Of a stretch of DNA of 31,509 nt, positions 5,114 through 27,004 are shown piece after piece (the first letter of the stretch is position 1; each line of letters starts with the position of its first letter). The notes beneath the pieces were generated by a model. That model was not told the origin of the DNA, did no database searches, and was given only the letters and a program-made list of their open reading frames with translations. The DNA is from a virus. The stretch is taken from the IMG/VR virus record IMGVR_UViG_3300022871_000073. One strand, given 5' to 3'. Both the position numbers and the translations under genes were made by a program.

Positions 5114-5144
5114 AAAAAAACCTGGATCAAATTAATGATCCAGG
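5114..5144 (-). terminator. intrinsic terminator / attenuator hairpin upstream of tRNA array 1
   Basis: CCTGGATC-AAATTAAT-GATCCAGG followed on the minus strand by U7. Confidence 0.6.
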
Positions 5145-5177
5145 ATTTCTTAGTTTTATTTTATGACATAACTCTTC

Positions 5178-5240
5178 CTAGACCACTATTTGCAATAGTA
5201 ATTGTTGGAGTTGTAATGTTATGTTATTCATTGTTTTCAT
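5178..5240 (-). CDS. leader peptide MKTMNNITLQLQQLLLQIVV (Leu/Gln-rich)
   Basis: ATG 18 nt after the promoter TATA. Five Leu and four Gln codons. The stop codon lies inside TCTAGGA, which can pair with the terminator 5' strand TCCTGGA. Confidence 0.5.
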   Translation of the reverse strand: MKTMNNITLQLQQLLLQIVV

Positions 5241-5258
5241 GTTTATTAATTATTCTGT

Positions 5259-5288
5259 ATTATATATACTTCAAAATGAAAAAGTTTA
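5259..5288 (-). promoter_or_regulatory. phage promoter-like motif (TAAACTTTTT-N9-GTATATATAAT)
   Basis: Consensus motif upstream of the leader ORF and tRNA array 1. Confidence 0.55.
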
Positions 5289-5335
5289 TCAATTAAATGT
5301 AAATATATCAAAAATGATGATCAGTTTGACATCTA

Positions 5336-5701
5336 TTAAAAAGTATTTAAATCAAGTTTACTTCGCAAAAAATAAATTGCATCGTTGTATGCATTGAGCA
5401 CCATCCGCTCATCGGTACCAAATGATCTTGATATGATTGATCCTAATTCCTCAATTTTCTTGATATCAAATTTTGTTCCATTGACCAGAACATCCATCAC
5501 GTTCATCACAACATCGTTATCGTACTGGCGTAACACTTTACTTTCAAGCTCAAGTATAATTTTATCCTTTGATTTTTCATCCAGCTCTAATGTTGCATCC
5601 TGAACATTTTTCGAGTTTTTCTTGAGTTTTTCAATTTCTGAAGTCCAGGAATCAATCCAAGATTCATTGATAAATTCATCGAAAGATGCGTGGTTTCTCA
5701 T
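5336..5701 (-). CDS. hypothetical protein (121 aa)
   Basis: ORF track; start overlaps the upstream stop (ATGA). Confidence 0.5.
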   Translation of the reverse strand: MRNHASFDEFINESWIDSWTSEIEKLKKNSKNVQDATLELDEKSKDKIILELESKVLRQYDNDVVMNVMDVLVNGTKFDIKKIEELGSIISRSFGTDERMVLNAYNDAIYFLRSKLDLNTF

Positions 5702-6483
5702 ATTTTGTATTTTTTAACAAGTCCTTCAGCGTAATCCAGAACATCCTTGAGTTTCGATGGTTCAACATCATCCCAAAATTCAGCGTCGTTATCCGACAAG
5801 ACGTTTTCGGAATATGAATCCCAATCACTTGTAGCTTTGCTATTTTTGGATTTCCATATTTTTTGTTCCACGTTATTTATATCATCAACAAGATCATCAA
5901 CCTCATTCATGAAGTTAAATTCTTCAAATGTTGGTGTGTATTTTTGTTCAGAGATTCTCAAAGATTTCTTGAGATGTGTCCAGCTTAGTTCACCCCTTTT
6001 TTCTTTAAACCTTTGTTTTAATTTACGTTTTTCTTTCTTGTACTCCTTTCCAGTTTCCCTATATTCCGCAGCAATTTTTCTTAAACCTTCAATGTGAATT
6101 ATTTCCTTGATCTGTTTTTCTATTTTCTTTTTTTCCTTTTCAATGGTCTTGACATTCTCAATTTTCTTTTCCGATTTTTGGGTCTTTTTTTCCAGATCCA
6201 AAATCTTCTTGCGCAAAGAAATTTCATAAACAGTTTCTTTGTTTAATTCAGCCTTAAGATTTTTGCGTTTTGTGTCATTTGTTTCATCCTTGATCAATTT
6301 GTAAATTCTTATCTGCTTTTGTATTGATTGGAATAACAAACTTAAAGTTGCTCCAATTGTGAAAGCGACTGCGCCAACTGCGATATCAAGAAATTCATTG
6401 ATTTCTTGATCCTCTATTTCTTCCATTAAAATATTTAATTTTTCGTCCAGGATTGTTTCGCCCAATTGTATTTCCATGCTCAT
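5698..6483 (-). CDS. hypothetical coiled-coil protein with N-terminal hydrophobic segment (261 aa)
   Basis: K/E-rich heptad-like sequence. TATATAAAAT lies 17 nt upstream of the ATG. Confidence 0.55.
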   Translation of the reverse strand: MSMEIQLGETILDEKLNILMEEIEDQEINEFLDIAVGAVAFTIGATLSLLFQSIQKQIRIYKLIKDETNDTKRKNLKAELNKETVYEISLRKKILDLEKKTQKSEKKIENVKTIEKEKKKIEKQIKEIIHIEGLRKIAAEYRETGKEYKKEKRKLKQRFKEKRGELSWTHLKKSLRISEQKYTPTFEEFNFMNEVDDLVDDINNVEQKIWKSKNSKATSDWDSYSENVLSDNDAEFWDDVEPSKLKDVLDYAEGLVKKYKI

Positions 6484-6510
6484 ATTTTTAATTTATTTTA
6501 TATATTCCTT

Positions 6511-7005
6511 TTAGAAAAGAGATTTTGATTCTTTGTTTGTTTCGTGAATTTTGCCCAGACATTTTTCATCACGAATTCTAGTCAATTGACCAATGAATTC
6601 ATTTACTGTTAATACTGTTAATTTAGGATCGTCGTATCCAACCTGATGAAAAAGTTTAAATTCTCCTGTTGCTTTGAGGGATTTCATGAAAAATGTATTA
6701 AGTGAAAGTGCATCGAATGCTTTTGTCAATAGATCTTGATACGCTTGAGACCCTCTTGAAATTTCTTTTCCTTTCCACCACAATCGTTGGTAAAATTTCC
6801 AATTGTTACCATCCTGACCCTTGGTTTTTGCTTTTTCCCCGTACATTTTACACATTGCCATCTGTGTTTCTTTATCTTCTATCTTGAGACTTTGTAAGAA
6901 TCCTTCCATTGAATTACATTTCACATCATCCACGACGAATTTATGGTACGCAAAATTTGAAAGATAATTTGCGGGTGGATCTGCATTGTATCGTATGTCT
7001 ATCAC
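6511..7005 (-). CDS. NADAR (YbiA-like, DUF1768) domain protein
   Basis: LSNFAYHKF...SMEGFLQSLKIED matches the NADAR signature (LSNF...EhyfQa.Kf). Confidence 0.55.
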   Translation of the reverse strand: MIDIRYNADPPANYLSNFAYHKFVVDDVKCNSMEGFLQSLKIEDKETQMAMCKMYGEKAKTKGQDGNNWKFYQRLWWKGKEISRGSQAYQDLLTKAFDALSLNTFFMKSLKATGEFKLFHQVGYDDPKLTVLTVNEFIGQLTRIRDEKCLGKIHETNKESKSLF

Positions 7006-7430
7006 TTTTTATTTTGTTTTAAAAAATTCAAAGATCGGTTCTTTTGTTCCACTTTTTGCGTTAATTTAACAATGAAATCAGCATTAATATTTTCAGAATC
7101 TGTATATGATGAGGATAGATAAAAATCATTGGTTTTTCCATCCTGTTCCCATAGGATAAATTTCTTCTTCATGCTTATGTAAGTAACTTTGAATTGCTCA
7201 ATTATTTCTTTTCTTTGTAAAAGTTCTACCAAAGTTGCATGTAAAATTCCATCACCGCTTGGAATGTCAATGTAAAAAAGATCACCGTTTTTATCACTAA
7301 CAGCTCTTCCGTTGCCAGTCATTCGTTTAACAGACTTGGGATTTTTGTACATTTCCCAATCAGTTCCGGTGAAAACTCCTAGATATTCTTCTTTTAAAAA
7401 TTCTTTAAATGATATAACATGCTGTTTCAT
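7002..7430 (-). CDS. hypothetical protein (142 aa)
   Basis: ORF track; overlaps neighbours by 4 nt at each end. Confidence 0.5.
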   Translation of the reverse strand: MKQHVISFKEFLKEEYLGVFTGTDWEMYKNPKSVKRMTGNGRAVSDKNGDLFYIDIPSGDGILHATLVELLQRKEIIEQFKVTYISMKKKFILWEQDGKTNDFYLSSSYTDSENINADFIVKLTQKVEQKNRSLNFLKQNKK

Positions 7431-7433
7431 GTA

Positions 7434-7866
7434 TTATATATCCAACTCGTCAAGTGTAGTTTTAAGAATATTATATGCTGAGCCTAATCCAGCTCTATCA
7501 TCTAAAAGTATTGAGAAAAATGGTTTGTAATTATCTGGATTTTGATGTTTGTGAAGTAAAGGACTTTTATTGACGTAGTTAACATTTATGTTTAATTCAT
7601 TACAAAAAATGTATTTTTTCATTCATTACTCGAAAACTATCTGAAGTATTAACAACCGAATAAAGACACATAGTAAATCCTAAGTCTGAACACCTTGCGA
7701 GTAATTCAATTGTTGAATTTAGTTCTAATCCTTTTTTGTGATAATCAAAAATTGTGTTATCAAAATCAAAACCGATTACAAGATTCTTATGTTCTGTGTA
7801 TTCTTTCTTGAGACGTTCTATTGCAGTCCTATCATTAAGGAATGAGTTTTCTGTTGTTTTATTCAT
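7434..7866 (-). pseudogene. HAD-family 5'(3')-deoxyribonucleotidase-like gene split by a +1 frameshift at an A6 tract
   Basis: N-terminal ORF (7600-7866, true start at MNKTTEN) carries motif I FDFDNTI. C-terminal ORF (7434-7622) carries LLDDRAG, the NT5C-type motif IV. Frames differ by +1 across GAAAAAAT at about 7610. Confidence 0.5.
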
Positions 7867-26152: not shown

Positions 26153-26176
26153 TATAAAAGTTTTTGAAAAACAACA

Positions 26177-26251
26177 TTAAATACCTGATGGATGCAAGAA
26201 ATTATTATTTTCTTGTTCCTCAAAATTTACGATATTTATGTTTCTTTTCAT
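26177..26251 (-). CDS. leader peptide MKRNINIVNFEEQENNNFLHPSGI (Asn/Glu-rich)
   Basis: Six Asn and three Glu codons. Shares the MKRxINI N-terminus with the leader at 26885-26956. A weaker promoter-like motif lies at about 26268-26300; the main promoter is at 26414-26443. Confidence 0.45.
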   Translation of the reverse strand: MKRNINIVNFEEQENNNFLHPSGI

Positions 26252-26413
26252 TGAATTATTTATTAAATTTTAAAAGAATATACCAGCAGCTGATTTATGT
26301 TTCACAATCAATTTAAATGCGAAGGAATCCCATTCTCACTTTCCTCACATACTGTTAGAGCCGAATGGACCTAAACTATTTCATTCTCTTTATTTGTTTA
26401 TTTCTAAACCTTT

Positions 26414-26443
26414 ATTATATATACATCAAAATTTATTAGTTTA
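26414..26443 (-). promoter_or_regulatory. phage promoter-like motif (TAAACTAATA-N10-GTATATATAAT)
   Basis: Motif variant, preceded by the 35-nt repeat element. Confidence 0.45.
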
Positions 26444-26503
26444 TTAATTAATTGTAAATATAACAAAAAATTAATACGAATCCATTACAAATTATTTAAA
26501 AAG

Positions 26504-26575
26504 CACAACTGTCAGGAATTGAACCCGAATCAAAGCTTTTGGAGAGCCCCATGTTACCAATTACACCACAGATGT
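26504..26575 (-). tRNA. tRNA-Trp(CCA)
   Basis: T-arm TCGGG-TTCAATT-CCTGA; acceptor ACATCTG/CAGTTGT; anticodon arm GGGCT-CTCCAAA-AGCTT. Confidence 0.5.
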
Positions 26576-26812
26576 ATGTTATTGCTCCCCCGAACGGTGA
26601 CGATCCGTTTATTTTAATGGAGTGACAGTCCATTTCCTCTCCTCGAGGCCCACAAGGGAATTTTTTATATTTTTTCATGAATTAAAATTCAAGCGTACTA
26701 GACGACCAGTAACCTTTCAGATACCAAATGAGATTTGAACTCATATTTTATTTTCAATATTTACTAAATGTAAACCTAACAAAAAATTTAATACGAATTA
26801 CATCTTTAAACA

Positions 26813-26845
26813 TAAAAAAAATCCGAAAGAAATGTCTTCCGGATT
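26813..26845 (-). terminator. intrinsic terminator / attenuator hairpin upstream of tRNA-Trp
   Basis: AAATCCGGAAG-(ACATTT)-CTTTCGGATTT followed on the minus strand by U7. Confidence 0.6.
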
Positions 26846-26884
26846 TAATGCTGTTTATTTGTTTATATTTCTATATCAACATGA

Positions 26885-26956
26885 CTAATCCGGAAAATTG
26901 CGATCATTCCAATCCCAATCATTACGTACTGTCTCTATGTTGATAAATCTTTTCAT
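26885..26956 (-). CDS. leader peptide MKRFINIETVRNDWDWNDRNFPD (Trp/Asp/Asn-rich)
   Basis: ATG 21 nt after the promoter TATA. Two Trp codons. The final codons and stop (TTCCGGATTAG) are complementary to the terminator 5' strand AATCCGGAA. Confidence 0.5.
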   Translation of the reverse strand: MKRFINIETVRNDWDWNDRNFPD

Positions 26957-26974
26957 TACTTTTACTTTTGTTGT

Positions 26975-27004
26975 ATTATATATACATCAATTTCAAAAAG
27001 TTTA
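26975..27004 (-). promoter_or_regulatory. phage promoter-like motif (TAAACTTTTT-N10-GTATATATAAT)
   Basis: Upstream of the leader ORF. Confidence 0.55.

Follow-up and report, generated by a model that had tools for sequence, protein, structure and literature searches.

The stretch of viral DNA analysed here, IMG/VR record IMGVR_UViG_3300022871_000073 with a length of 31,509 nucleotides (hereafter the window), is AT-rich, with a G+C content of about 32%, and carries 36 tRNA genes, all of them on the minus strand. Using ARAGORN on the whole window, we found that these genes are grouped in five arrays and one isolated initiator-type tRNA-Met. Rfam supports 34 of the 36, and no RNA family other than tRNA reached the gathering threshold in an Rfam scan of the window. 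All five arrays are preceded by the same succession of elements, which reads along the minus strand as a promoter-like motif, a short open reading frame (ORF), a terminator and then the tRNAs. An earlier note on this DNA had taken these units, which extend over positions 5114-27004 and are numbered here 1 to 5 by their coordinates, for leader-peptide attenuators matched by codon content to the tRNAs behind them.

The array behind module 1 (4582..5101) contains two Gln-UUG genes together with Leu-UAA, Leu-UAG, Leu-UAA and Leu-AAG. The two Gln-UUG genes had been predicted correctly, while four Leu-type tRNAs are present instead of the five that were claimed. Module 2 precedes the longest array (7905..10225), which had been divided into arrays 2 and 3 and which we read with ARAGORN and a closer look at the odd genes. 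It begins with an odd class-II tRNA, Ala, a Ser-UGA-like gene, Pro, Thr-UGU, Tyr and His, and continues with Ser-GCU, Thr-CGU, a homing-endonuclease ORF, Cys, Arg-GCG, Gly-UCC, Arg-UCG and Gly-GCC. The Ser-UGA tRNA named in the earlier note corresponds only to a non-canonical class-II tRNA-like gene (9970-10053) with a UGA anticodon and an aberrant T-arm, which was missed by ARAGORN and was matched by the Rfam tRNA-Sec model with E = 0.038. The first gene of this array (10142-10225), also of class II, has a 6-nt anticodon loop. Behind module 3 (23965..24881) lie Lys-UUU, Ile-GAU, a CAU tRNA, Arg-UCU, two Phe-GAA, two further CAU tRNAs and Val-UAC. Module 4 is followed at 25387..26115 by Asn-GUU, a 78-aa ORF, a second Asn-GUU, Phe-GAA and two Glu-UUC, of which the Phe gene had been overlooked, the Asn and Glu genes being as described. 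Likewise, module 5 does precede tRNA-Trp-CCA, but the tRNA-Asp-GUC of the same array (26503..26659) had escaped notice. Apart from the 78-aa ORF and the homing endonuclease, the genes behind the modules are tRNAs.

The strict motif TAAACT-N14-TATATATAAT occurs exactly five times in the 31.5 kb, with none expected, and each module has one copy (minus strand, 5259..5288, 10445..10474, 25230..25259, 26414..26443 and 26975..27004 for modules 1 to 5). The ATG of the leader follows 18-35 nt past the motif, and 162 nt past it in module 4. Because a looser version, GTATATAAAATA, is found before protein genes and before the initiator tRNA, the motif is most likely the general promoter of the phage. The claim of a phage promoter in every module stands as far as the strict motif is concerned (5/5), with the copy of module 4 about 160 nt away from its leader; from the motif we infer the promoter function. 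In module 4 the intervening spacer of about 160 nt (26252-26413, minus strand) is predicted to be structured, has no counterpart in the other four modules and was without a match in Rfam; directly before leader 4 stands GAAACA-N14-GGTATATTC, which is promoter-like but weaker. Upstream of their promoter motifs, modules 1, 2 and 4 share another repeated element, ATGTAATTCGTA...TTTTTTGTTATATTTAC (5299-5332, 10516-10549 and 26450-26481, minus strand), which recurs between the terminator of module 5 and tRNA-Asp (26770-26803, minus strand), where it overlaps a sigma-70-like site. This element could represent a second promoter class that bypasses attenuation.

The five leader ORFs begin with ATG and comprise 20-28 codons each. 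When we re-read the sequence, all of them were present at the positions and with the peptides that the earlier note had given. Leader 1 (5178..5240, minus strand as for all leaders, MKTMNNITLQLQQLLLQIVV) contains the Leu codons UUA, CUC, UUA, CUA and UUG together with four CAA codons. In leader 2 (10331..10417, MNTLSYTYRPSSSPAHTCGGSGPVCIKT), 22 of 27 residues are cognate to the array (binomial P = 2e-6). Leader 3 (25114..25194, MQQIVNIIKRRFFMVMIIKSGTGYLL) has Ile, Val, Lys, Arg-AGA, Phe and Met codons, and leader 4 (26177..26251, MKRNINIVNFEEQENNNFLHPSGI) six Asn, two Phe and three Glu codons. Leader 5 (26885..26956, MKRFINIETVRNDWDWNDRNFPD) contains two Trp codons and four Asp codons (GAU), the latter explained by the tRNA-Asp-GUC in its array. 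Each peptide ends at a stop codon; TAG is used in three of the five leaders and in two of the 31 long ORFs of the window (TAA 24, TGA 5), and in modules 1 and 5 it is part of the antiterminator pairing described below. A Shine-Dalgarno-like motif is seen in only 2 of the 31 long ORFs, and an A-rich context before the ATG is common to the leaders and the real genes. The leaders thus appear translatable, and a start context that is A-rich and free of a Shine-Dalgarno motif fits a Bacteroidota-type host.

A strict scan of the minus strand detects six intrinsic terminators in the window, five of which are the module hairpins. Only the sixth (14128-14153) has the ordinary layout, at the end of a gene and before the next promoter, whereas those of the modules lie between leader and tRNA. 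They combine a stem of 9-15 bp with a U-run and are located 24-38 nt past the leader stop and 7-173 nt before the first tRNA. By terminator scans, and in modules 2 (strict scan) and 3 also by folding, they were mapped on the minus strand to 5121..5144 (module 1, 19 nt before tRNA-Gln), 10274..10300 (module 2, 48 nt before the first tRNA), 25054..25090 (module 3), 26122..26153 (module 4, 7 nt before tRNA-Asn) and 26819..26846 (module 5, with a 12-bp stem and a U-run), the gaps of modules 5 and 3 being 159-173 nt. Since 7-48 nt leave little room for another promoter, the tRNAs of modules 1, 2 and 4 would be made by read-through only.

The content of the leaders follows that of the arrays. Counting leader residues without the initiator Met, 63 of 116 are cognate when each leader is paired with its own array, which is the best of all 120 leader-array pairings (next 53, mean 25.8). 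All amino acids served by an array are found in the leader of that array (22/22), so the statement that leader codon content mirrors the downstream tRNAs is well borne out. The cognate residues form one central block in each leader, namely LQLQQLLLQ, SYTYRPSSSPAHTCGGSGP, IVNIIKRRFFMVMIIK, NINIVNFEEQENNNF and DWDWND. Compared with the amino-acid usage of the long ORFs of the window, the binomial P values of the individual leaders are 5e-3, 2e-3, 7e-3, 2e-6 and 5e-5. Among 245 random short ORFs from the window, three of the five leaders rank top for their own array and the Gln/Leu leader is near the top (0.02); the leader of module 3 is not exceptional (0.06).

The same architecture is found in other huge phages. 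An 804-aa vault-like protein (14179-16593) ties the window to LR756500 (462 kb) and to LR756501/LR756503 (735 kb), with identities of 50-52%; the DUF4842 protein of the window is 61% identical to that of LR756501, and LR756502 (642 kb) is connected through its shared tRNA architecture. The 735-kb genome has been assigned to the Mahaphage clade, with predicted Bacteroidetes hosts, in a study that does not mention leaders or attenuation (PMC7162821). The window may come from a Mahaphage-type huge phage with a predicted Bacteroidota host. We scanned these genomes for an ARAGORN tRNA with a strict terminator at most 450 nt upstream and a short ATG ORF ending at most 90 nt before that terminator. 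This recovered the five modules of the window and 11 more in LR756500, LR756501 and LR756502, giving 16.

In LR756501, five Leu tRNAs follow the leader MNNILHINLLNSLCLLGIKLIG, in which all six Leu codons occur. A second leader, MLQTSKHSKHFSSSSKWFTTFG... (MLQTSKHSKHFSSSSKWF...), stands before Trp, His, His, Phe, Lys, Ser and further tRNAs, and a third, MNFRIINMIQEQMQQIQ..., before Met, Gln-UUG, Gln-CUG, Ile-UAU and Glu. The five leaders of LR756502 are MTTSFQQQQQQQINRTD ahead of four Gln tRNAs, ...GVIAIGAG... ahead of Ile, three Gly and Ala, MKTMNLNMNLNTLTVVNNTLCIR... ahead of Asn, Leu, Val, Ile, Thr and Arg, ...IETIGYTGYEGAYSE... ahead of Glu and Tyr, and ...DQDQPD... ahead of Pro and Asp, with a Gln array next. 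LR756500 contributes MKTLSTYPLGQAQTLGTPPITG (Ala, Leu, Pro, Tyr, Gln, Gly, Thr), ...NIIDNRRDDNNII... (Asn, Asp, Arg and one CAU tRNA) and MKAISVHIIHIWEHLLEEV... (His, Glu, Val, Trp, Leu). The grouping of the tRNAs differs from genome to genome and the leaders follow the grouping. Over the 16 modules of the four genomes, 194 residues match the own array, a number that none of 100,000 permutations attained (permuted mean 90). Moreover, the array amino acids are present in their own leader in 62 of 62 cases (permuted mean 38.5, maximum 56; 0/100,000; Fisher P = 5e-29). The earlier note had named a lack of conservation in related genomes as an argument that would speak against its proposal; instead, leaders and arrays co-vary across three distant huge-phage genomes.

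Homologous leaders from different phages share their N-termini (MKRFINIET/MNRFTNIET; MKTMN in two phages; MNTLSY/MKTLST), while the central block is rewritten. At the nucleotide level, 24 of the first 30 nt of leader 5 are identical to the start of one LR756502 leader (counted by eye). Close relatives of the window were not found among GenBank phages or in IMG/VR: in a megablast comparison with GenBank phages, the tRNA region gave generic tRNA matches only, and IMG/VR scans with the flanking 198-aa protein, which has only two homologues, and with the promoter pattern gave no matches. The 365-aa and Phage_30_3 proteins, used in tblastn, were of no help in locating arrays in relatives. The same phage recurs in lake metagenomes, where variants (Antarctic-lake-type, ENA metagenomes) are 95-100% identical. 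Within the relatives, no tRNAs or no modules were detected in LR756501 at 1-50 kb, 80-130 kb, 230-280 kb and 310-360 kb, nor in LR756500 at 1-50 kb and 150-300 kb. The stretch of LR756511 that was examined holds 35 tRNAs and no module, and in a GC-rich relative the tRNAs lie directly behind a coding gene without a leader.

At the level of codons, 129 of 147 cognate codons in 13 modules can be read by the anticodons of the array under strict wobble rules. All nine cognate codons of leader 1 are decodable in this way; for Arg, leader 2 has CGU (array Arg-GCG and Arg-UCG) and leader 3 has AGA (array Arg-UCU). The earlier note had proposed that the phage senses the tRNAs for A-ending codons in particular. 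The data bear out a match of amino acids and nothing beyond it, the codon-level evidence being only suggestive. We also considered that the leaders might deliberately sample many synonymous codons and set this idea aside, as the overall result was marginal and only the six-codon Leu leader of LR756501 was individually significant (P = 0.0025).

A leader segment that can pair with the 5' strand of the terminator had been described for four modules. We found such a segment in all five, the additional one being that of module 4. It overlaps the stop codon, as had been proposed, in modules 1 and 5, while in modules 2-4 it ends 3-12 nt before the stop. To describe its behaviour, the ribosome was placed on one A-site position after another, with 26 nt masked for it, and folding was restricted to the RNA beyond it. 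The transcript was cut before the 3' strand of the terminator, as it would be at the moment of decision. Folds in which pairing across the ribosome was allowed gave misleading long-range helices and were replaced by these downstream-only folds. Duplex energies were compared with those of 2,000 random 48-mers from the same strand.

In module 1 the 5' strand of the antiterminator is UAGUGGUCUAGGA (5176..5188, minus strand as for the following; -12.6 kcal/mol, p = 0.006), and the antiterminator holds with the A site as far as codon 15 and is gone from codon 18. The strand of module 2, GGACCGGUG (10346..10354; -12.8 kcal/mol, p = 0.0065), remains paired up to codon 18, and for stalls at codons 8-10 the antiterminator is even the full-length minimum-free-energy (MFE) structure. 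Module 3 has a perfect 8-mer complement, UACCGGGU (25125..25132; -14.7 kcal/mol, p = 0.0025), which is paired up to codon 18 and lost from codon 20. In module 4, UCCAUC(A)GGU (26183..26192; -11.5 kcal/mol, p = 0.027) pairs with one bulge, CCAUC(A)GGU with ACCGGUGG, completely up to codon 17 and no longer from codon 18. The strand of module 5, UUUUCCGGAUU (26887..26897; -14.8 kcal/mol, p = 0.0015), stays paired as long as the A site has not gone beyond codon 17, and the pairing is lost from about codon 19. Taking 13 modules together, the complementarity reaches a combined P value of 4e-13.

When the ribosome is placed on the cognate codons, the antiterminator fully forms in all five modules, with -11 to -30 kcal/mol. 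It stays intact to A-site codons 15-18, which is the end of the cognate block, and is lost roughly at codons 18-20, a geometry known from classical attenuators; its 5' strand begins where the front of a ribosome halted at the end of the cognate codons would lie. Naked leader RNA folds into two elements, a hairpin inside the ORF and, behind it, the terminator. This leader-internal 1:2 hairpin stands out in the MFE folds of modules 1 and 2, but is less strong or incomplete in modules 3-5. In the full transcript, the antiterminator is the MFE structure only for some stall positions of modules 2 and 5.

Taken together, we consider it likely that the modules act as ribosome-mediated transcription attenuators, each one gating its own tRNA array and exerting negative feedback on decoding capacity. 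From the sequence elements, their geometry, the statistics and the conservation, all of which are observed, we infer that the leaders are translated, that ribosome and polymerase are coupled, and the direction of the regulation. Transcription would start at the conserved promoter-like motif and a ribosome would begin to translate the short leader. As long as charged tRNAs for the central codons are ample, the ribosome would reach the end of the ORF and cover the antiterminator strand, so that the terminator forms and transcription stops before the tRNAs. The central codons that would be sensed stand for the same amino acids, and are mostly the same codons, as those served by the downstream tRNAs. 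If any such tRNA is scarce, the ribosome would stall on the cognate codons and the antiterminator strand would pair with the 5' strand of the terminator, allowing RNA polymerase to read through and transcribe the whole array. The new phage tRNAs would relieve the stall and the module would shut again. Since the product relieves the stall, each module would act as a negative-feedback loop, one per array. Because the leaders mix several amino acids, a shortage of the tRNA for any one of them would open the whole array, which amounts to OR logic. The phage would then probably make its own tRNAs only when the ribosomes run short of them.

Every in-silico prediction of this trp/his-type logic holds, including the architecture, the geometry, the little room for a bypass in modules 1, 2 and 4, and the conservation. 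The isolated initiator-type tRNA-Met (22682..22789 including its motif, minus strand; GGG/CCC anticodon stem) also fits. As the earlier note had observed, it has a promoter-like sequence, here a related motif (22758-22789) directly before the gene, with both leader and terminator absent in between. The lack of a leader agrees with attenuation because elongation cannot sense a shortage of the initiator.

Several observations weigh against attenuation of this kind. Even with a stalled ribosome, thermodynamics favours the terminator in modules 1, 3 and 4, so that attenuation requires the assumption of kinetic control, as in trp. Module 4 has its strict promoter motif far from its leader. In modules 3 and 5, spacers of 160-170 nt separate the terminator from the tRNAs, where a second promoter would bypass attenuation, and the spacer of module 5 does contain a sigma-70-like site (TTTACA-18-TAAAAT, 26745-26774). 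Huge phages may use their own RNA polymerase, which is relevant to the response to terminators and to the coupling with ribosomes. With regard to the codons, leader 2 offers no cognate codon for either Thr-CGU or Arg-UCG, the three UCA codons rely on the non-canonical tRNA-like gene, and synonymous-codon diversity, when tested, gave a marginal result (P = 0.05 overall). Furthermore, three arrays or tRNA groups of LR756501 have no leader, and the strain variants are invariant across modules 2, 4 and 5 and so provide no data on compensatory changes.

Among other explanations, the modules might be true attenuators whose signal is amino-acid starvation of the host, or its aminoacylation status, with the control of the tRNAs as a by-product, for example of a stress read-out. 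In trp and his attenuation, a stalled ribosome is blind to the difference between a missing and an uncharged tRNA, and the physical mechanism would be identical, so that starvation sensing is a variant of the mechanism proposed here. We regard it as unlikely. More tRNA would not relieve amino-acid starvation, which makes the response futile, and what is regulated are precisely those tRNAs by which the sensor codons are read, as is characteristic of a feedback loop on supply. Moreover, relatives in the clade encode their own tRNA synthetases (PMC7162821).

Alternatively, the hairpins could be constitutive, partly leaky terminators or processing or stability elements, the ORFs independent micro-genes, and the expression of the tRNAs independent of leader translation. 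This would agree with the terminator being the MFE structure at almost every ribosome position in modules 1, 3 and 4, and a further promoter might be concealed in the long spacers of modules 3 and 5. Such an arrangement is nevertheless improbable, since it leaves the co-variation unexplained: neither the presence of all 62 array amino acids in their own leaders, nor the complementarity of the leader 3' ends to their own terminators, nor the change of the leaders with array content across four genomes would be expected, and modules 1, 2 and 4 offer only 7-48 nt for a second promoter. That the leaders are functional small proteins, with an array-like composition by common descent or chance and coincidental alternative pairings, is very improbable, because the co-variation is again unexplained and the part kept between phages (the N-termini given above, which taken alone would suit a functional peptide) is the non-cognate one, whereas the central part is rewritten for each array, chance is excluded by the permutation and binomial statistics, random short ORFs from the same loci almost never match as well, and the small ORFs among the T5 tRNAs show neither terminators nor a match.

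Attenuation of the tRNA arrays has its closest parallels in the multivalent attenuators of amino-acid operons such as ilvGMEDA (Leu/Val/Ile) and thr (Thr/Ile), and in trp, his, leu and pheA. Like the modules, these have a short ORF close to the promoter in which the regulatory codons are clustered, a hairpin within the leader (among the modules, clear in 1 and 2), an antiterminator overlapping the 5' strand of the terminator and a rho-independent terminator before the regulated genes, and in ilvGMEDA and thr several amino acids are sensed by a single leader. They differ in that the regulated genes here are tRNA arrays and not biosynthetic enzymes or synthetases, that up to nine amino acids are combined in one leader, and that the modules are phage-encoded and present in five copies within 22 kb. 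In the window, no Rfam amino-acid leader family (Thr_leader, His_leader, Leu_leader, Trp_leader and similar) was detected at the gathering threshold. Below it, the Thr_leader covariance model aligned over its full length to module 1 (5111-5229, 31.8 bits, threshold 55) and the His_leader model to module 3 (25051-25157, 26.7 bits, threshold 49).

Control of a translation component by a leader peptide is known from pheST of E. coli, where phenylalanyl-tRNA synthetase is regulated through the pheM leader by ribosome stalling at codons of its own amino acid. There, the target is a synthetase protein on a bacterial chromosome and not tRNA genes, and one amino acid is sensed. T-box elements resemble the modules in that the terminator is read through when a specific charged tRNA is short and in that their targets are related to translation, but they bind uncharged tRNA directly and need neither ribosome nor ORF. 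No T-box (Rfam RF00230) was found in a search of the whole window and in sensitive searches of the module regions, and no Rfam cis-regulatory family reached the threshold.

Clustered tRNA genes among promoters, small ORFs and homing endonucleases are also present in the tRNA region of T5 and likewise in T4. We examined the small ORFs of T5 as similar modules and rejected them, as there is no terminator between promoter or short ORF and the tRNAs and no match to the downstream tRNAs. The earlier note knew of no described system of this kind, and in the full texts available to us we found no account of tRNA genes, whether of phages or of bacteria, that are controlled by leader-peptide attenuation; many subscription papers were beyond reach, and this is absence of evidence only.

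A number of further features of the arrays and of the phage were recorded. Inside the array of module 2, the NUMOD3 homing-endonuclease ORF (8361-9044, minus strand) overlaps the start of tRNA-Cys; among the strain variants it has 219, 218 or 156 aa or is absent, while the attenuator module is invariant. The spacers between tRNAs at 9333-9398 and 9483-9568 (minus strand) have in common a hairpin-forming motif, AAAAGGT..GTT.CAGCAAATAA....ACCTGTTAAA, that may serve as a processing signal. Among the degenerate tRNA-like genes, at sites that include 8229-8300 (minus strand), there is a sub-threshold tRNA match of 28 bits. An apparent tRNA fragment, seemingly without a normal anticodon arm, lies directly upstream of tRNA-Lys (24890-24960, minus strand), and some of the tRNA calls are unusually long (His 84 nt, Thr-UGU 84 nt, one CAU tRNA 89 nt, Asn 88 nt).

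In the relatives, a tRNA with a CUA anticodon (an amber suppressor, called Pyl) as well as calls with four-base and two-base anticodons were seen (LR756500 around 10652, minus strand; LR756501 at 24243-24333 and 48902-49090), which hints at stop-codon recoding or frameshift suppressors in the clade. An ORF directly upstream of tRNA-Ile in LR756501 (about 7960-8098, minus strand), in an array without a leader, has an end that by eye resembles the C-terminal domain of ribosomal protein L7/L12. The 804-aa protein of the window, encoded on the minus strand, combines a major-vault-protein shoulder with Vault_3 and SPFH domains, which is unusual for a phage, and has a counterpart of 43% identity in one IMG/VR contig. 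Finally, a tandem 18-nt repeat at the edge of the window (31380-31505), beside a tail-fibre-like ORF (30434-31243), encodes a collagen-like Gly-X-Y run on the minus strand.

Why and when phages use tRNAs is a long-standing question, and compensation of codon usage, turnover of host tRNAs and evasion of tRNA-targeting defences have been proposed. The class of mechanism suggested here is classical; new would be its target, stable RNA genes, the breadth of the sensor with up to nine amino acids, and the phage context. We think it likely that Mahaphage-type huge phages of Bacteroidota use such attenuators, array by array, to measure how fast host ribosomes decode the codons that their tRNAs read, as a homeostat of decoding capacity; these would be the first tRNA genes found under such control. 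Hence, a textbook mechanism of amino-acid metabolism, leader-peptide attenuation, would extend to stable RNA genes. Depletion of host tRNAs, as may be caused by shut-off or anticodon-nuclease defences, could also be countered automatically by the modules. If so, they form a compact natural family of parts that convert the availability of specific tRNAs into transcriptional output, and they offer annotators a rule to spot functional short ORFs in phage genomes. Overall, the modules point to a supply of tRNAs that is regulated by demand, array by array, in one or more clades of the largest known phages, and the leader sequences would state which codons the phage treats as limiting.

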